Source: a virus
Taxonomy: Duplodnaviria > Heunggongvirae > Uroviricota > Caudoviricetes
DNA length: 43,490 nt
IMG/VR virus record: IMGVR_UViG_2778261673_000008
Coordinates: 1-43,490 of that record
Direction: 5' to 3' (one strand)
Positions 4,148-37,070 of the stretch are shown here, in pieces; position 1 is the stretch's first letter; each line of letters begins with the position of its first letter. The notes under the pieces are model-generated. The model saw only the letters and a program-made list of their open reading frames with translations. It was not told the DNA's origin and did no database searches. A program made the position numbers and the translations under genes.

Positions 4148-4965
4148 ACGTACATATCCTGTTTACGTGCCCAGTCAGGGCGTTTAATAATTTCCACTCC
4201 GCCCCACTCATCGTTGATGCGGCATTCGTGATAGGTATTCAGATCCCGGCGGAACAGAGCGTGCCCGGCATCGACATCCGGCGCATCCAGCTCGAACACG
4301 CGTACCGGATATCGACCACAATCAATGCTTTCGCTCACGGCAAGAAAGAAAAAACCATGCGGCTGACCAGTAACCCTCATTGCGCCTTCGCGGTACATTG
4401 CGTCCTGCACGTGGTAGCGGAATTCCTCGATGTGGCGTGCAAAACGGTCCATATCTGCAACCTTTTTCACGTCGACGATCACGTTGTGCTCGTTCAGCCA
4501 TTTGTCTGGACGAATGCGGCACAACTCACCCGTATCTTCATCGTTCCAGTACATTGATGCTTCGCAGTAACCAGGGGCTTCCAGCATCCAGCGTGCCGCC
4601 GGGTGAGCCATTGCGCTATCACGCATCAGCTCCAGTTTCCGCCACTGCTCGGCATCAAGTACCGTAATCCCCATATCCGCCACATCACGAAGAAATGCCT
4701 CTTCGTCAGCTTTACCTTGTTTCGTCCGACGATCGAATTTCGGTGAAACGATGAAGCGTTTGTCGAATTCTCCAGGTTCCAGAAGCAGGCAGTGCAATGC
4801 GGTTCCCATATCCAGTGCAGACTTTTTCTCTTCGTCTTCTGGTGCTGCCTGAACCCATTTAAGAAGCGCCGGATTCTTGGCAACCATGTCCAGTTGCGAC
4901 TTACTCACGCCGTCACCGGCGTGGTAGTCTTCGTTGCTGATGTCGAAATAAATTCCCGGTTTCAT
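4144..4965 (-). CDS. PD-(D/E)XK exonuclease (RecE / exonuclease VIII C-terminal-domain-like)
   Basis: 273 aa; N-terminal GIYFDISNEDYHAGDG and RPD...VDVKK nuclease motif; paired with the RecT-like gene. Confidence 0.65.
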   Translation of the reverse strand: MKPGIYFDISNEDYHAGDGVSKSQLDMVAKNPALLKWVQAAPEDEEKKSALDMGTALHCLLLEPGEFDKRFIVSPKFDRRTKQGKADEEAFLRDVADMGITVLDAEQWRKLELMRDSAMAHPAARWMLEAPGYCEASMYWNDEDTGELCRIRPDKWLNEHNVIVDVKKVADMDRFARHIEEFRYHVQDAMYREGAMRVTGQPHGFFFLAVSESIDCGRYPVRVFELDAPDVDAGHALFRRDLNTYHECRINDEWGGVEIIKRPDWARKQDMYV

Positions 4966-5435: not shown

Positions 5436-5513
5436 TTACCGTTGAGGTAATAATTATGCGTATATGGTTTGATGTCAATAGATATGAGTTAAAAAAATTA
5501 CCCGTTAGGTAAT
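5436..5513. promoter_or_regulatory. Left operator region: two copies of palindrome (A/G)TTACC-N5-GGTAAT
   Basis: GTTACC GTTGA GGTAAT at 5435-5451 and ATTACC CGTTA GGTAAT at 5497-5513, upstream of the leftward early operon. Confidence 0.55.
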
Positions 5514-5569: not shown

Positions 5570-6154
5570 TTATTGTTTGTTTTTTTCGTTCTGGTTGATG
5601 ACAAATTCAATGTAACTTTCGATCTTTGCTTTCTCGGTTTCGGGTAACAATGCGTAGCGCGAGCGATCATAGTTGATGGTCGCAGGGTCGTGCGGGTGAA
5701 TCAGTAATTCATAGCCGTGACGCCCGAATGCGGATGCAACATTCTCCAGGGTGGAAATGGAAACGCTGACCTCATTGTTTAACAGGCGGCTGATTGTCAC
5801 CTGGGCTACGCCGGATGCGCGGTGAAGTTTTCCCTGTGTTGAAAGGTCGCGGCTTTCGCTCATCCAGCGTTCCAGGTTGTGAGCCGCCAGCTGGCCAATG
5901 TCGCTTGGGCCGACAGGCTGAAAACCTTCCTGAGAAAGCGAGCGATCGATATCAAGCCAGTTACGGGGTTTATTGGCGGCAGCTTCAATTTTTCGTGCAA
6001 CCTGGTCGCCGATAACCTTCTTGCCAAGAGCCCAGCGGTTTACCAGATTTGCCTGAGTTCCAAGTTTTTCAGCCATCCGCGTCTGAACACCATTGAATTC
6101 ACGGTCGATCAAGTCGTTGAGATTTTGCCTGCGGACGTCCTGGATACTTTTCAT
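5570..6154 (-). CDS. Phage repressor with two tandem XRE-type HTH domains, no S24 peptidase domain
   Basis: 194 aa; HTH-like segments near residues 25-65 and 110-160; divergent from the Cro-like gene with operators in between; own terminator. Confidence 0.7.
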   Translation of the reverse strand: MKSIQDVRRQNLNDLIDREFNGVQTRMAEKLGTQANLVNRWALGKKVIGDQVARKIEAAANKPRNWLDIDRSLSQEGFQPVGPSDIGQLAAHNLERWMSESRDLSTQGKLHRASGVAQVTISRLLNNEVSVSISTLENVASAFGRHGYELLIHPHDPATINYDRSRYALLPETEKAKIESYIEFVINQNEKNKQ

Positions 6155-14335: not shown

Positions 14336-14412
14336 TGGCGTGGCATGCAGGATTCGAACCTGCGACCAACCGCTTAGAAGGCGGTTGCTCTGTCCAACTG
14401 AGCTAATGCCAC
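14336..14412 (-). tRNA. tRNA-Arg (anticodon UCU), phage-encoded
   Basis: Hand-folded cloverleaf: acceptor GTGGCAT/ATGCCAC, D-arm GCTC/GAGC, anticodon stem ACCGC/GCGGT with loop CTTCTAA, T-arm GCAGG-TTCGAAT-CCTGC, encoded CCA. Confidence 0.85.
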
Positions 14413-31573: not shown

Positions 31574-31599
31574 ACAAAAAAAGCCCGCAGCGCGGGCTT
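31574..31599 (-). terminator. Rho-independent terminator of the 31598-32137 gene
   Basis: AAGCCCGC-AGC-GCGGGCTT hairpin with 7-nt T-run on the minus strand, overlapping the stop codon. Confidence 0.75.
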
Positions 31600-32137
31600 A
31601 CCAAAACTTGTACCACGGTGATTTATCCTTCAATGGACAATCCTTCCATCGTGTGGCCAACCATTCATATTCTTTAAAATATGTGTTTATGTTTTCTTTT
31701 TCTCTAATGGCTTGTATAAGAGGTAGCGCAATCTGATAGTTATTTACAACGGAGCTGTAAAATACTTCCTTAATCATGGTCTCATCATAAGTTTTCCGCT
31801 TCACGCTCACAGCCATGCGTTCGTAGAAACCTAGACAGTAAATTATTTCTCTCTTCTCTGTCTTTTCTTCATCCGTAAGATCAGCCTGCCCATTGCTTGG
31901 ATACATATAAGAGCGGAATGATTTGTTCGATTCGTGAATGCGGCGCATAGTAGATAGGCCTTTCTTATAATCTACATCAAACCTGCTTTCACCAAGGAAT
32001 ACTGAAGTGTGTACTTTTCTCGCTGTATTTACATTATAAATAATAGTAGCGATAGCTATGAACAAGCCAAGCGAAACCGCGACTGCACTTACTATTTGAG
32101 CCACGGCCATGGCAAATTGCATTTCTTCACTTAACAC
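31598..32137 (-). CDS. AT-rich membrane-anchored protein of unknown function
   Basis: Single N-terminal TM helix then a 150-aa domain rich in Y/K/E; very low GC relative to neighbours; own terminator. Start GTG 32137 or ATG 32122. Confidence 0.5.
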   Translation of the reverse strand: MLSEEMQFAMAVAQIVSAVAVSLGLFIAIATIIYNVNTARKVHTSVFLGESRFDVDYKKGLSTMRRIHESNKSFRSYMYPSNGQADLTDEEKTEKREIIYCLGFYERMAVSVKRKTYDETMIKEVFYSSVVNNYQIALPLIQAIREKENINTYFKEYEWLATRWKDCPLKDKSPWYKFW

Positions 32138-32346: not shown

Positions 32347-33057
32347 TCAGAAGAACCCTGCTTTGTCGTTGATATACTCCGCGTGGGTCTGGATATCACG
32401 CAGGCATTTGCTCACACCGACAATGTAGCAGAACATGGTGGTCAGCTCCGCCGCCGCGCCCGATACATCATGCCCGTCGTCCTGCAACTGATTCAGCAGA
32501 TTCATCAGCAATGAGTTCTCCGTCAGGCCGAGAACACCAGACGGCGAATGAATCAGACTGCGGTAGCCGGGCTTCAGTGGGGCACTGTAGGTTTTGTTCT
32601 CTATCTTCATTGCCTGCATCACTGCTGACGCCGTGGCGTTGGCTACCTGGTCGGCAACCATCTTTATGCGTTCTTCCTGCGGGAACGAGTTTTTAATGTA
32701 GCTTCCTGTTCGACGGATCTGAGGAAGTACCTCACCTGTAACCCATTTACGAAAGCGGTAGGGGATAGTGCCTAGTGTCACTGCGTCGCGGCAGCGGAGG
32801 ATCAGTGTGTAGAGGCCTGACTCGGAGATGATGTTGATCTCTTTTACTCGGCTGTCAAAAATTGCACGATGTTCATGCCCTATGTTGAACATAGACCTTT
32901 CATCATCATCCAGTTTTTCAAGTGCTTGGGTGACGTTTTGGATACGCAGCGCACTACAAACGTCTTGGGCTACAAACCATGGTTGGCCATCGATAATGAT
33001 GGAACGGATAGGGTTAACAGATTCAAATTTGAAGATGGCAGTTTGAGCATTAGCCAT
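32347..33057 (-). CDS. Bro-N domain antirepressor-like protein
   Basis: Start taken at MANAQTAIFKFE (GGAG RBS); N-terminal IFKFESVNPIRSIIIDGQPWFVAQDVCSAL is a Bro-N signature; C-terminal domain is paralogous to ORF 34206-34463. Confidence 0.7.
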   Translation of the reverse strand: MANAQTAIFKFESVNPIRSIIIDGQPWFVAQDVCSALRIQNVTQALEKLDDDERSMFNIGHEHRAIFDSRVKEINIISESGLYTLILRCRDAVTLGTIPYRFRKWVTGEVLPQIRRTGSYIKNSFPQEERIKMVADQVANATASAVMQAMKIENKTYSAPLKPGYRSLIHSPSGVLGLTENSLLMNLLNQLQDDGHDVSGAAAELTTMFCYIVGVSKCLRDIQTHAEYINDKAGFF

Positions 33058-33325
33058 GGTGGTTATCTCCACTTAGTGATTTTAATCACCACCGCAACGC
33101 CAATTACTGGTGGTGAACTGGACAAGGTTGGCGTACCGGCCTAAGTGGTACCGGTGTCCTTTCGGACCCCTGCCCAGCCCACCATAATTCGGATATAGCT
33201 GTGCTTAACGCATAAAAAAACCACGTCTGGCGTGGTATGCGCCACTTAGTAACCCGGGACGCCAATCCCGGCACTGGATTTTGCCAGTGCCCGATTACTA
33301 TGGCACAAGAGGAGTGCGATGTAAA

Positions 33326-33435
33326 TTTACCGAAAAGGTAATGATAAGCGCGAATAAATATCAAAATCAACCGTATTTGGTTGATGGAGTTTAATGCTTG
33401 ATCACCTGAAAGCAAGATATTACCTTTAAGGTAAT
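33326..33435. promoter_or_regulatory. Two operator palindromes in the divergent region between Bro and the 33455 gene
   Basis: TTTACC GAAAA GGTAAT (33326-33342) and ATTACC TTTAA GGTAAT (33419-33435, 20 nt before the ATG). Confidence 0.5.
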
Positions 33436-33454
33436 GTTATTGTGAGGAAAAGCA

Positions 33455-34183
33455 ATGGAAGTTTTCTGGATAGTTGTTGGTGTGGTTGCGGTGATTATTT
33501 ACGTTATCAACCAGAACAAGACTAAGATCTCTGATCGTACGGTCGTAAATCATAACAAAACGATAAAGACCGAAGATGGGGAGATAACGATTAATCGTAC
33601 ACAGGTGATAGAACACACCTCTACTCAGTTTCAAAAAACTGGAGGTAATGCGCCTAATATTTCCGCACCTCCTGCTTATGATAGTGCGGTAATCCAGACA
33701 TATTATAAACAGCAGGAGTTAGCAAAAGAGAGGCAACTGATTCAGCCAAAGCCATTTACAGCAGAGCTTCCACCTGGAGTGTCAACGCGTCCGGCATATC
33801 ATGGAAGATTCCCTGGTGATGACACATCGTCTCAGTCATCTAAAAAAGCACCTCAGGCAGTATCAGAGCCAGCAAGAATACCTTCTGTATCGCCGCCAAA
33901 AGAAGAATCAGCTAACAGAGTTTCAAGTGGTAGCAAGCAGTGCTTGCGATGCAGAATAAACCTTCCATATGAAAAATTCAGGAAATCGTCAAAAAATCCA
34001 GATGGATTGACTAAGTGGTGTGCAAGGTGTCTCGATGGCCCAAAGAATACACGCCATATGAAGTGGTGCCCAATTTGTAATGTCCGCAGAAAACGAACCA
34101 GCTTTTACCCTAATAATCAAAATGCGGATGGTTTAATGGCATGGTGCAAAACGTGCTGGGATGAGCACAAAGCGAAACGATAG
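33455..34183 (+). CDS. Membrane-anchored protein with C-terminal tandem zinc-ribbon-like motifs
   Basis: N-terminal TM helix (VFWIVVGVVAVIIYVI), Pro/Ser-rich linker, two repeats of C-x2-C...DGL..WC-x2-C (CLRCRIN...DGLTKWCARC and CPICNV...DGLMAWCKTC). Confidence 0.5.
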   Translation: MEVFWIVVGVVAVIIYVINQNKTKISDRTVVNHNKTIKTEDGEITINRTQVIEHTSTQFQKTGGNAPNISAPPAYDSAVIQTYYKQQELAKERQLIQPKPFTAELPPGVSTRPAYHGRFPGDDTSSQSSKKAPQAVSEPARIPSVSPPKEESANRVSSGSKQCLRCRINLPYEKFRKSSKNPDGLTKWCARCLDGPKNTRHMKWCPICNVRRKRTSFYPNNQNADGLMAWCKTCWDEHKAKR

Positions 34184-34208
34184 GCCGCTCTTGCGGCCTT
34201 TAAATTTA
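34182..34208 (+). terminator. Terminator hairpin between convergent genes
   Basis: AGGCCGC-TCTT-GCGGCCT followed by TTTAAATTT. Confidence 0.55.
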
Positions 34209-34463
34209 CCGGGTTTGTTTTCGTAATTGTTCGGCACAATAGTCGAGATGTGTTTGCAGATCCCGCATAGACATCTGTGAGCTGGTGACGTAGTTAATCA
34301 GTGCAGTCAGTTCGGCAAGTGGGCCATCGACATTAAATCCATCCTTATCGAGATCCCGGAGTAATTTCATCAAGTGCGATCCCTCCACCAGTGACCTGAC
34401 GCCTCCCGGCGTGTGAATCCTTTCGGTAAATCCCTCTTCCAGTGGATAGTGATACTGCTGCAT
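34206..34463 (-). CDS. Small protein paralogous to the Bro C-terminal domain; candidate SOS-controlled antirepressor
   Basis: Start taken at MQQYHYPLEEGF (GGAG RBS); aligns with the Bro C-terminus (HTPGGVRSLVEGSHLMKLLRDLDKDGFNVDGPLAELT versus HSPSGVLGLTENSLLMNLLNQLQDDGHDVSGAAAELT); LexA box 22 bp upstream. Confidence 0.5.
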   Translation of the reverse strand: MQQYHYPLEEGFTERIHTPGGVRSLVEGSHLMKLLRDLDKDGFNVDGPLAELTALINYVTSSQMSMRDLQTHLDYCAEQLRKQTR

Positions 34464-34484
34464 CTTATCTTCTCCATGCAATAA

Positions 34485-34500
34485 CTGTATATTTATACAG
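34485..34500. promoter_or_regulatory. LexA (SOS) box
   Basis: AACTGTATATTTATACAGTAT matches CTGT-N8-ACAG and the TACTGTATATATATACAGTA consensus; lies in the promoter region of the 34206-34463 gene. Confidence 0.7.
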
Positions 34501-34548
34501 TATCAAATAATTTATTTGCTATCCAGCACGTTTTGAAAATTACCTGAA

Positions 34549-34565
34549 AGGTAATATCTGTTCGA
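34549..34565. promoter_or_regulatory. Operator palindrome ATTACC TGAAA GGTAAT upstream of the tailspike gene
   Basis: Identical to the site at 14734-14750; followed by CATATGTGGTT (34594-34604) and GGTAATAAAAT (34610-34620). Confidence 0.5.
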
Positions 34566-34658
34566 ATTCACAGTCTATCTATCCATATGTGGTTTTTCAG
34601 GTAATAAAATAACCGGATATGCGGCGCAACGGGTGCTGCGACTATCTGGAGATTTAAC

Positions 34659-37070
34659 ATGACGGTCTCAACCGAAGTCGACCATAACGACTACACAGGG
34701 AACGGCGTTACCACATCTTTCCCGTACACGTTCCGCATCTTCAAGAAGTCAGATCTCACCGTCCAGGTCGCTGACCTTAACGAAAATATTACGGTGCTGA
34801 CTCTGGATACCGATTACTCCGTTACCGGGGCGGGTACCTATTCTGGCGGGAATGTCGTGCTGATGTCACCGCTGGCCAACGGATGGCAGATTTCTATCTC
34901 GCGCGACCTCCCAGTTACCCAAGAGACTGACCTCCGTAACCAGGGGAAGTTCTTCGCAGAGGTCCATGAGGATGCGTTCGACAAGCTGACCATGCTTATC
35001 CAGCAGTGTTTCAGCTTTCTACGCCTGGCGCTGCGCAAGCCGTCGTTCATCGCGAACTATTATGACGCACTCAACAACCGCATTCGTAACCTTCGTGACC
35101 CGTCACAGGCGCAGGACGCAGCCACGAAGAATTATGTTGATGGGCAGATCGTTGACAACACCAATGCCTGGAAAGCTGGTGATGCCATTCTTGATCAGAA
35201 GATTGACAGTAATTTTGCGAGAACTCTACGGGTTCCAGAAAGCACTGTTGACCAACTAAGCCCGGTATCTGTTCGGAAAAACTCGTTGTTAGGATGGGAT
35301 AGCAACGGAAAGCCAATACCTGTTTTTTCGATGACAGATACAGCAGATCTCGCAATAAAGTTAGCATCTCATGAAGATGGTCTTGGTATGTCTTTGCTGG
35401 GCATGCCAGGGTCTGGATCTTTAAATCAACTTATTGGTAAGTGGACTTGTCCTGAGGCATGGGGCGTTATTACTGATTCCCAGCCAGACGCTCATGCTAA
35501 TTCTAAAAAAATGTTTAATATGTTTGAGTGGTTACGATCTTTAGGTGGCGGTGTAGCATATTTCACACCAGGTAAAACCTATTGGATTGATTTTATTCAG
35601 TTCGTACCCAGCAATGTTGTAATTATAGGATATGGGGCTACGGTAAAACAGATAAACCCATTGTCAATGTATGGTCGTGGTGGTTTCGTTTTTGGGAGTG
35701 GCAGAGAATGGAACTATAAAAAAGCAAAAGCGGCATACAATTCCGGTAATTACCCGTCTTCCGTTGCTGATTCTACGATGGCAGAGTTACCACTGAAATC
35801 TTACCTGAGAGATAATCAGTCTTATGTTCAGTGTGAGAAATGTAAAGTTTATGGCTTGCGCATGTCTGCAGTGTTTACTGATTCCAGCTATTGGGGAGGC
35901 TATGCATTTAATTGTGTTAATGCACAGCATATAAGATTTTTCGATGTGGTTGGTGATGGTTGGACTCAATTGTTTAACTTTGGTAACGATAGTTCTTCCT
36001 CTTCTCCATCTTGTTATGATGTAATTGCAAAAGGTGCTACCGTTGAAAAGGCGGATCTTGTTCGCACTTATTATGCATTTGGTTTTATTGCAAACTCAAC
36101 AGATTGCTGGATTGAAGATTGTGATCTACTTAAGCCTATGACTGCCGGAACTATTAATGGTTCAGGAGCTGCTACAAACTTTGTAGAAAACTGTGGGTTT
36201 AAAGATTTACGAGCTGCAAAATTAGGTCGTACAGTATCTTCGGAGATGGTTCTATTAAATAATGCAAAAGGCTGTCTTGTTGAGAATATAGATGTTGGTG
36301 ACTGCATTAATGGTGTAGCCACCTACTATACTGATGATTCATATAATGATGCTAACATGCCGAATATTATAAGAAACATTTCTGCATCAGCTGATAATGT
36401 TGTCGCTCTTCGTGCAAAATACTCTGTTATTGATGCATTTCATGGTAAGGGGGCATACATAAATGAGTTGTATTTCGCAAATAATAACGCAAGCGGAAAC
36501 AAAATAAATAAAAACCCTAAATCTATAGGCTTTGGTGGCACAAACCTGCAATCATGGTTTTTAACCAATAATACTGTTCTTGGTTGGTTCAGAAGATATT
36601 TTTATTTAAGACCATCAGAAATAATTCTGAACGACAAAGCAGACACATTATCATGGACATTTAACAAATTAGTATCAACAAAAAACGGTGTTGATCTTTA
36701 CTTCATGTGGAGGGTTCCAGATGATATAAAAGCTATTGATGATATAAGAGCTTTTATAAGATTTAACATTTCACCTGATCAGAATGCAGCAGCAGCAGGA
36801 TCTACTGTTGAAGCAAGTTTAATTCAGATGATATCGTTTGACGGAGATATAAATACAGATCCTTACACGGCGTTTTCTAATTCAAAAGTTGCTACATCTG
36901 GAGTTGAAAACACTACAATAGTAACTCAAATGGGGTCAACTGCCCCTGGCTTTGTAAAAATGGCAGATGAAACACATGGACTTGCATATAGTTGGTATGT
37001 GTTATTTAAAATGACACATAACGTAAATAACAATTATATGAAAGAAATCAGAATAGCGGGGTATAATTAA
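34659..37070 (+). CDS. Tailspike / tail fibre protein
   Basis: 803 aa; N-terminal segment of phage-typical GC content, then a long AT-rich C-terminal part with beta-rich N/G/S/T/Y composition. Confidence 0.7.
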   Translation: MTVSTEVDHNDYTGNGVTTSFPYTFRIFKKSDLTVQVADLNENITVLTLDTDYSVTGAGTYSGGNVVLMSPLANGWQISISRDLPVTQETDLRNQGKFFAEVHEDAFDKLTMLIQQCFSFLRLALRKPSFIANYYDALNNRIRNLRDPSQAQDAATKNYVDGQIVDNTNAWKAGDAILDQKIDSNFARTLRVPESTVDQLSPVSVRKNSLLGWDSNGKPIPVFSMTDTADLAIKLASHEDGLGMSLLGMPGSGSLNQLIGKWTCPEAWGVITDSQPDAHANSKKMFNMFEWLRSLGGGVAYFTPGKTYWIDFIQFVPSNVVIIGYGATVKQINPLSMYGRGGFVFGSGREWNYKKAKAAYNSGNYPSSVADSTMAELPLKSYLRDNQSYVQCEKCKVYGLRMSAVFTDSSYWGGYAFNCVNAQHIRFFDVVGDGWTQLFNFGNDSSSSSPSCYDVIAKGATVEKADLVRTYYAFGFIANSTDCWIEDCDLLKPMTAGTINGSGAATNFVENCGFKDLRAAKLGRTVSSEMVLLNNAKGCLVENIDVGDCINGVATYYTDDSYNDANMPNIIRNISASADNVVALRAKYSVIDAFHGKGAYINELYFANNNASGNKINKNPKSIGFGGTNLQSWFLTNNTVLGWFRRYFYLRPSEIILNDKADTLSWTFNKLVSTKNGVDLYFMWRVPDDIKAIDDIRAFIRFNISPDQNAAAAGSTVEASLIQMISFDGDINTDPYTAFSNSKVATSGVENTTIVTQMGSTAPGFVKMADETHGLAYSWYVLFKMTHNVNNNYMKEIRIAGYN

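Follow-up and report, generated by a model that had tools for sequence, protein, structure and literature searches.

The locus studied here raises the question of what a short gene, encoding a membrane-anchored protein with two cysteine-rich repeats and lying between virion genes, does for the prophage that carries it. The stretch of DNA analysed, hereafter the window, is 43,490 nucleotides long and represents a phiV10/epsilon15-like (Uetakevirus-type) prophage of E. coli. The gene is a coding sequence for 242 residues with an ATG start, located at 33455..34183 on the + strand. On the same strand, genes for internal virion proteins lie upstream and the tailspike gene (34659-37070) lies downstream, the two being separated by a variable accessory region that also holds a Bro-N antirepressor-like gene (32347-33072, - strand), a DUF4760 gene and small ORFs. 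The region around the ORF is 97% identical to phage TL-2011b, in which the ORF is intact, yet annotated merely as a misc_feature; several E. coli chromosomes match it at 100% identity.

A first-pass annotation, made from the sequence of the window, had been unable to match the protein to a known phage function, and homology searches led to the same result. The protein matches PHROG 6762 over its full length (E 9.1e-150, 498 bits, residues 1-242 on profile positions 1-242), a family listed as of unknown function. Scans of the protein against Pfam and NCBIfam gave no significant family, and none of the PADLOC-DB v2 families reached E<=0.1 for the protein or for three neighbours. In the literature, no description of the protein's architecture or of phiV10/epsilon15 operators was found.

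Architecture and membrane topology of the protein

The only strongly hydrophobic segment of the protein comprises residues 3-20 (33461..33514, + strand), with a Kyte-Doolittle 17-residue mean of 2.70 versus 0.11 for the next-best segment, and was modelled by AlphaFold as a helix with pLDDT 85-91, confirming the single N-terminal transmembrane (TM) helix proposed in the first-pass annotation. An N-out/C-in orientation of this helix is indicated by hydropathy, model and charge bias. In the family alignment, the mean number of K+R residues is 0.09 before the helix versus 3.5 in the 15 residues that follow it. Since Lys and Arg are absent before the helix and clustered behind it in 46 of 47 family members, the C-terminus is placed in the cytoplasm, in agreement with the earlier assignment of the fingers by the positive-inside rule.

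The helix is followed by a juxtamembrane beta-hairpin-like segment (residues 26-55; 33530..33619, + strand), for which two strands are predicted at low pLDDT and which is kept both in the alignment of close relatives and in the 47-sequence alignment. Next comes a low-complexity variable linker (residues 56-156; 33620..33922, + strand) modelled with pLDDT <50, whose residues 59-156 comprise 14% P, 11% S, 11% A and 8% Q and are of low confidence or disordered. The Pro/Ser-rich linker of 130 residues described previously is therefore right in length and composition, as 135 residues rich in P, S, A and Q separate the helix from the first Cys, but about 35 of these residues belong to the conserved hairpin-like segment.

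All eight Cys residues of the protein are arranged in CxxC pairs within two fingers, which were delimited from alignments, the model and the Cys motifs. Zinc finger 1 comprises residues 160-194 (33932..34036, + strand) with C163, C166, C189 and C192, and zinc finger 2, together with the C-terminal helix, comprises residues 202-242 (34058..34180, + strand) with C205, C208, C231 and C234. Both copies have the form C-x2-C-x16-DGL-x2-W-C-x2-C. The duplicated motif reported in the first-pass annotation was thus recovered, but the spacing of 20-25 residues given there fits the Cys-to-Cys gap (22) and not the gap to DGL (16). The finger domain is strongly basic across the family, with a median net charge of +14 and a pI of 9.8. 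These data strongly support that the product is a bitopic inner-membrane protein with a two-residue periplasmic N-terminus and with its fingers at the cytoplasmic face of the membrane, where the hairpin and the long flexible linker hold a compact basic twin Cys4 domain.

Relationship of the fingers to phage nuclease modules

Modelled on its own, the finger domain reached a pLDDT of 86.7, each unit consisting of four short strands and then a helix, with the first CxxC on the first hairpin and the second CxxC at the N-terminus of the helix. According to this model, the modules belong with the treble-clef-like Cys4 fingers seen in Stc1, PacI and Hpy99I. The zinc-ribbon-like label used earlier accordingly holds with respect to a predicted Cys4 zinc-binding site, but not with respect to the fold, which differs from that of classic two-knuckle ribbons. 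The predicted zinc site is a structural Cys4 site formed by two CxxC motifs, as in beta-beta-alpha-Me nucleases; the closest folds also include the protein-binding treble-clef domains RING, FYVE, PHD and Stc1.

Sequence searches gave a similar range of relatives. The Pfam model Stc1 (PF12898) matched with 21 bits (E 5e-4), through its second half only and under its gathering cut-off of 24.8 bits; the Stc1-type feature of a tandem zinc finger with eight conserved Cys is present in the protein. The fingers also match the zinc part of PHROGs annotated as 'endonuclease VII', 'HNH endonuclease' and 'Lar-like', and 40 matches were obtained in BFVD at E<=1e-3, of which the named ones are mostly HNH, beta-beta-alpha-Me and endonuclease VII nucleases or zinc-finger proteins from phages and giant viruses. 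Searches of PDB sequences with full-length and domain profiles gave PacI and an unrelated thioredoxin-like protein as best hits (E 0.07-0.11), and Foldseek found no match under E 1 for the full-length model in the PDB.

The same finger unit occurs in soluble relatives as arrays of 3-12 copies, often ending in an HNH or endonuclease VII domain. When 97 soluble multi-repeat relatives were scanned, Stc1 was detected in 47 (E<=1e-3), Endonuclease_7 in 16 and HNH in 12; Bro-N, PD-(D/E)XK-like or helicase domains were present in a few. These phage HNH/endonuclease VII arrays (Stc1 PF12898-like; PHROGs 1035, 2633 and 2255) have in common with the protein studied here the unit C-x2-C-x(~22)-(W)C-x2-C and the F and DG(L) signatures. 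However, they are soluble and frequently catalytic at their end, whereas the present protein is TM-anchored, contains two repeats and lacks a nuclease domain, as judged from the lack of any HNH or Endonuclease_7 Pfam match. In the family alignments the conserved motif is D-G-L without His, the catalytic His (DH/HNH motif) and the metal-binding Asn or His of HNH and endonuclease VII nucleases being missing. The idea that the finger is an inactivated HNH core is unsupported by sequence, since comparison of the finger-unit profile with the endonuclease VII domain profile of the soluble relatives by hhalign gave a probability of 0.1-3%.

Hpy99I contains a tandem pair of beta4-alpha2 repeats, both of which carry a structural Cys4 zinc, and its first repeat, which is non-catalytic, reads the DNA major groove (PMC2699513). 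Compared with Hpy99I and PacI, the protein studied here is without the catalytic beta-beta-alpha-Me residues, the D-H position appearing as D-G in a by-eye equivalence, and without the dimeric nuclease context, and the scores are too low for claiming homology. Nucleic-acid binding is suggested by the charge of +14, the nuclease fusions and the analogy with Hpy99I. Because the module is common to nuclease arrays and resembles the non-catalytic repeat of Hpy99I, the fingers likely bind nucleic acid without cutting it. By this analogy, the C-terminus is probably a non-catalytic, nucleic-acid-binding twin zinc finger.

Conservation and selection

A word-indexed search gave 33 clusters, Enterobacterales throughout; in the alignment of 28 close relatives, the eight Cys, the TM helix and the hairpin are kept and the linker is variable in length and sequence. 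A full HMMER scan of the representative library was carried out with the C-terminal 88 residues as the query and a cut-off of E<=1e-3. As a result, the finger domain was found to match 913 representative clusters, and about one third of the best 150 of these have the same architecture, with an N-terminal hydrophobic helix, a spacer and two terminal fingers. The spacer between TM helix and first finger ranges from 41 to 137 aa across the family. The hosts are Enterobacterales, Acinetobacter, Haemophilus/Aggregatibacter, Marinobacterium, Pseudoalteromonas, Neptunomonas and Oceanobacter, with Pasteurellaceae and marine Gammaproteobacteria represented. At least 47 divergent sequences, drawn from several orders of Gammaproteobacteria, preserve the full architecture.

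Their alignment shows no variation at the eight Cys or at W188, K161 and D225. The first-pass annotation had allowed that the Cys motifs might not be conserved in homologues; the invariance of the eight Cys and W188 in 47 relatives, together with the 913 clusters matching the domain, argues that the repeat is not a chance feature. In intergenus comparisons, in which pS is saturated (0.6-0.94), pN of the fingers is 0.08-0.10 in closer pairs and up to 0.33 in the most distant, versus a finger pS of 0.75-0.94, that of the TM/hairpin part 0.13-0.25 and that of the linker 0.3-0.57. Within E. coli, the fingers show a pN of 0 versus a pS of 0.08. The TM and finger regions are thus under strong purifying selection.

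The gene forms an optional cassette

When the window was aligned with phiV10 and phiv142-3, homology ended at 33349 and restarted at 34206. This homology break defines an optional (moron-like) cassette of 856 bp (33350..34205, + strand) composed of a predicted promoter with its operator, the ORF and a terminator. The upstream part of the cassette is 105 bp long and includes one of the two palindromes described below. At its other end, a GC-rich hairpin terminator (34182..34199) overlaps the stop codon and faces a convergent 91-aa ORF. In phiV10 and phiv142-3, which are without the cassette, a small gp24-like gene is directly followed by an RNA leader and the Bro-N gene.

A census of 5426 complete E. 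coli genomes yielded about 530 with this type of prophage region, of which about 113-129 carry the cassette and about three quarters do not. The site is empty in most non-carriers, and occupied by a YafO-toxin cassette in a few. That the protein could be a known structural or assembly component, a possibility left open in the first-pass annotation, is at odds with this distribution: the absence of the gene from phiV10, phiv142-3 and most related E. coli prophages argues that it is not a structural component and led us to reject a role as an epsilon15-like virion structural or assembly protein.

Predicted promoter and operator of the cassette

Within the cassette, the operator palindrome TTACCTTTAAGGTAA is located at 33420..33434, 20 bp upstream of the ATG. 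A predicted -35 element, TTGATC (33398..33403, + strand), and the palindrome together form TTGATC-17-TACCTT, so that the predicted -10 element, TACCTT (33421..33426, + strand), is the left arm of the palindrome. A Shine-Dalgarno sequence, GAGG (33444..33447, + strand), lies 7 nt before the ATG. A consensus promoter scanner called no + strand promoter upstream of the gene, TTGATC-17-TACCTT being below its threshold. The cassette promoter is a weak match to the consensus and is predicted solely on its conservation across genera: homologous loci of other genera have the geometry TTGACC/TTGAAC/TTGAAT-17-TACCTT/TAACCT, which occurs at equal distance from the ATG in Citrobacter/Enterobacter/Salmonella-type and Serratia-type loci. 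The palindrome is at an unchanged distance from the ATG in five loci (L057, L058, L059, L063 and L085), and the operator of the Providencia locus L003 is the variant TTAACC-N5-GGTTAA.

The palindrome is not confined to the cassette. With at most one mismatch allowed, TTACC-N5-GGTAA occurs 16 times in the window versus 0.62 times expected, and 0 of 100 shuffles reached 16. The sites precede most other transcription units of the window and flank the CI-like repressor gene (5570-6154), two of them lying between the repressor and a cro-like gene and two downstream of the repressor. A further palindrome near the gene, TTACCGAAAAGGTAA (33327..33341), belongs to the phage backbone outside the cassette and is also present in phiv142-3, a phage without the gene. 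The first-pass annotation had assigned both palindromes to the promoter of the gene; both are real and TTACCTTTAAGGTAA does overlap the predicted -10 element, but TTACCGAAAAGGTAA is a backbone site. The latter abuts the -35 element of the divergent isrK promoter and belongs to the promoter of the isrK-C4-antirepressor unit. On the minus strand upstream of the gene, Rfam detected isrK (33290-33214, 67.7 bits) and the C4 antisense RNA (33189-33106, 63.6 bits), both of which precede the Bro-N gene. From TTTACA-17-CATAGT, a promoter-like site on that strand with a TG upstream, transcription would start at the 5' end of isrK.

Since phiV10 has 14 such sites at equivalent places without the cassette, the palindrome is best regarded as the general putative operator of the phage and not as the target of the zinc-finger protein; the occurrence of TTACCGAAAAGGTAA in phiv142-3 also led us to reject the latter idea. 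Judging from the positions of the sites, the CI-like repressor is the putative binder. As its -10 element lies inside this phage-wide operator, the gene is predicted to be shut in the stable lysogen and switched on with the early genes.

Gene neighbourhood in distant relatives

Five independent lineages have the gene 15-54 bp downstream of a repressor gene and in the same orientation. Peptidase_S24 is detected in the repressors of L083, L088, L090 and L095, with HTH_3 in addition in L083, L090 and L095, and for the repressor of the L074 group the HTH is the sole domain. An HTH+S24 repressor is separated from the gene by a membrane ORF of 98 aa in L089, and repressor and gene are arranged tail-to-tail in L093 and L094. 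In L087 the gene stands behind an Arc-like gene, with a divergent KilA-N gene; in P22, ant follows arc. A Bro-N or Rha antirepressor adjoins the gene in the window and in L057-63, L066, L067, L003, L092, L068 and L086. The gene is divergent from a Bro-N/P22_AR_C antirepressor in L092, follows Rha in the Edwardsiella group, and is downstream of Bro-N genes in the Citrobacter, Superficieibacter and Providencia groups.

No fixed partner gene was found in the at least 30 loci inspected for one. Neighbours differ from group to group: the Edwardsiella group has a small TM protein, the Marinobacterium group a secreted SNase, and the Citrobacter/Superficieibacter group HicAB or other small ORFs. The expression logic apparently differs by lineage, being operator-repressed or Arc-linked in some and co-transcribed with cI in others. 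Such lineage dependence fits exclusion better than replication, and it remains a weakness of the functional proposal.

Proposed function and alternative explanations

Based on the position of the gene in immunity regions, its optional distribution, and the design of a membrane anchor joined to a basic domain, we tentatively propose, at somewhat less than even confidence, that the protein is tethered to the membrane, binds nucleic acid and serves as an accessory factor in superinfection exclusion or abortive infection. More generally, the adjacency to CI/LexA-type repressor, Arc and antirepressor genes in many unrelated prophages and the presence or absence of the gene among near-identical phages suggest phage-versus-phage competition as the most likely role. 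In the proposed mechanism, an operator-binding repressor would silence the cassette promoter in the stable lysogen, and the cassette would be expressed together with the early genes once infection or induction sets in. The tethered fingers may then act on DNA or nucleoprotein arriving at, or adjoining, the inner membrane, binding nucleic acid without cleaving it. Homology links the family to no exclusion or defence system, including those represented in PADLOC, and we found no specific support for a sensor role. It is conceivable, although rather unlikely, that the family represents a new mechanistic class of immunity-region factor, in which membrane-tethered zinc fingers capture DNA and thereby block or abort the entry of rival genomes, or pin phage DNA so as to bias the lysis-lysogeny decision.

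Several known systems follow a comparable logic. Lambda RexAB, P22 SieA and T4 Imm are accessory membrane exclusion proteins encoded near cI/immI or expressed early; in lambda, rexAB and cI share a transcript, and T4 imm belongs to the early genes. The positional or temporal logic of these systems is similar, but they show no sequence or domain likeness to the protein studied here and are not known to contain zinc fingers. AbiP of Lactococcus and PdpSau of S. aureus prophages are membrane-anchored abortive-infection proteins, of which AbiP is reported to bind nucleic acids and PdpSau is an accessory prophage gene (PMC10127798). Their N-terminal membrane helix and positively charged cytoplasmic domain are also predicted here, but they have an OB-fold-like domain and Gram-positive hosts, whereas the present protein carries a twin zinc finger and has no sequence relation to them. 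Zinc-binding anti-sigma (ZAS) proteins, in which a cytoplasmic N-terminal H-x3-C-x2-C domain precedes a TM helix, were also considered; the protein has the reverse order, with its TM segment first and its fingers last, and has no H-x3-C-x2-C motif.

Two alternatives retain the cytoplasmic, membrane-tethered topology. If the fingers bound protein, as LIM/RING/Stc1-like domains do, they might modulate the lysis-lysogeny switch by keeping a repressor, an antirepressor or a host factor membrane-bound. This appears improbable: a charge near +14, like the repeated joining of the finger module to nucleases and helicases, suggests nucleic acid as the ligand; some of a set of near-identical prophages do without the gene, which would be unusual for a component of the switch; and the neighbouring regulator varies among CI, Arc, Bro-N and Rha, leaving no fixed partner. 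The protein might otherwise tie the phage's own replicating or entering DNA to the membrane, for replication or genome entry, in the manner of phi29 p16.7, an early-expressed replication organiser with an N-terminal TM anchor and a C-terminal DNA-binding domain. The order of anchor, spacer and basic DNA-binding-like domain matches this design, the operator-overlapped promoter in the window predicts expression with early lytic genes, and the gene of L087 follows arc just as P22 ant does. However, p16.7 is not known to be related to the protein in sequence or fold, and is part of the phi29 replication programme, whereas the present gene is optional, being missing from phiV10, phiv142-3 and about three quarters of the related E. 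coli prophages, and in several lineages it is apparently co-transcribed with the lysogenic repressor. We regard such an anchor as quite doubtful.

Two other explanations would change the nature of the protein itself, and both seem very unlikely. Eight Cys could make four disulfides, and a lone N-terminal hydrophobic segment could in principle be a signal anchor, so that the Cys-rich domain would be periplasmic (C-out) and act on the envelope or on incoming virions. Against this placement, the protein starts with ME and has no positive n-region, the K/R cluster stands behind the helix in 46 of 47 members, the finger module is arrayed in soluble proteins, often with HNH or endonuclease VII domains, and the CxxC pairs sit on a hairpin and a helix N-terminus as in structural zinc sites. 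The gene might instead be a decayed remnant, in which a fragment of a homing-type HNH or endonuclease VII protein became fused by chance to a hydrophobic leader, given that the module is otherwise typical of such nucleases, the catalytic domain is missing and TL-2011b carries no more than a misc_feature here. A remnant is hard to reconcile with the intact ORF in that phage, the at least 47 divergent sequences that keep the architecture, the strong purifying selection on the TM and finger parts, and the conserved promoter, RBS and terminator of the cassette.

Significance

The family is catalogued as PHROG 6762 without functional annotation. Its parts, a TM anchor and nuclease-type zinc fingers, are of known kinds; what is new is that they are combined and that the combination is associated with immunity regions. 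The analysis also reveals a regulatory grammar of phiV10-like phages, in which a dispersed TTACC-N5-GGTAA operator stands before most transcription units. As a small, single and widespread gene whose product has a modular design of anchor, spacer and twin fingers, the system should be easy to test. It is well established that repressor-adjacent prophage genes can provide exclusion and defence functions. If the tentatively favoured reading of exclusion or abortion through DNA binding at the membrane is true, the protein would represent the AbiP/PdpSau idea in Gram-negative hosts, realised with zinc fingers. It would then also be relevant to the prediction of host range in phage therapy, given that the gene is present in about 2% of complete E. 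coli genomes (113-129 of 5426).

A dispersed operator-like palindrome

The palindrome TTACC-N5-GGTAA occurs 16 times in the window, compared with 0.62 occurrences expected, at positions 5436, 5498, 6210, 6258, 6595, 8541, 8603, 11198, 11216, 14118, 14735, 32267, 33327, 33420, 34540 and 35801. It precedes the majority of transcription units, those of the terminase and the tailspike among them, and the gene encoding the CI-like repressor is flanked on each side by a pair of sites. The related phage phiV10 (L102) carries 14 copies. The sites look like a putative genome-wide operator set in the style of P1 C1, and no description of such a TTACC-N5-GGTAA set was found in the literature on phiV10 and epsilon15 operators. 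A tRNA gene (14339-14412, minus strand; Rfam tRNA, 73.3 bits) is located between the early genes and the structural genes.

The Bro-N gene, its leader and its paralogue

The antirepressor-like Bro-N gene (32347-33072, minus strand) has a leader (33106-33290, minus strand) in which Rfam identified isrK (33290-33214, 67.7 bits) and C4 antisense RNA (33189-33106, 63.6 bits) in tandem, so that a single leader joins a Gifsy-1-type with a P1-type antirepressor control element. The Bro-N protein was grouped in the same BLAST cluster as the product of a 91-aa ORF (34206-34481, minus strand), a homologue of phiV10 gp24 and epsilon15 gp19; the C-terminal part of the former and the latter are paralogues. 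Short and long copies of these two types also co-occur in other genera. Downstream of the Bro-N gene, a DUF4760 protein gene (31598-32137, minus strand; E 8e-31) lies within the accessory region shared with the zinc-finger cassette.

The cassette site and the zinc-finger family

In some related prophages (E. coli hits H65 and H76-H78), the cassette site is filled by other cargo, annotated as a YafO-family toxin and a hypothetical protein, so this position acts as a small hotspot for cargo. In the reference phage record TL-2011b, the region at 34153-35241 (L001 5796-6884) bears no annotation beyond a misc_feature reading 'similar to hypothetical protein', even though the 242-aa zinc-finger ORF is unbroken there. 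Directly upstream of the cassette promoter, Citrobacter/Salmonella-type loci carry a perfect 14-bp palindrome, TGTGACATGTCACA (L058, L063, about 4927-4940, and also L059), which the E. coli cassette lacks; the hairpin ATCAACCGTATTTGGTTGAT (33366-33385 in the window) is found there in its place.

In the Marinobacterium-type lineage, the zinc-finger gene is overlapped at its 3' end by a gene encoding a secreted staphylococcal-nuclease/Excalibur protein (L083 5654-6307; L090 4654-5307), and the apparent operon order is cI, zinc-finger gene, nuclease. A 118-aa variant from a Neisseria MAG (L096 3791-4147) combines a TM helix and a Pro-rich spacer with a single finger, suggesting that the number of fingers in the anchored family is variable as well.
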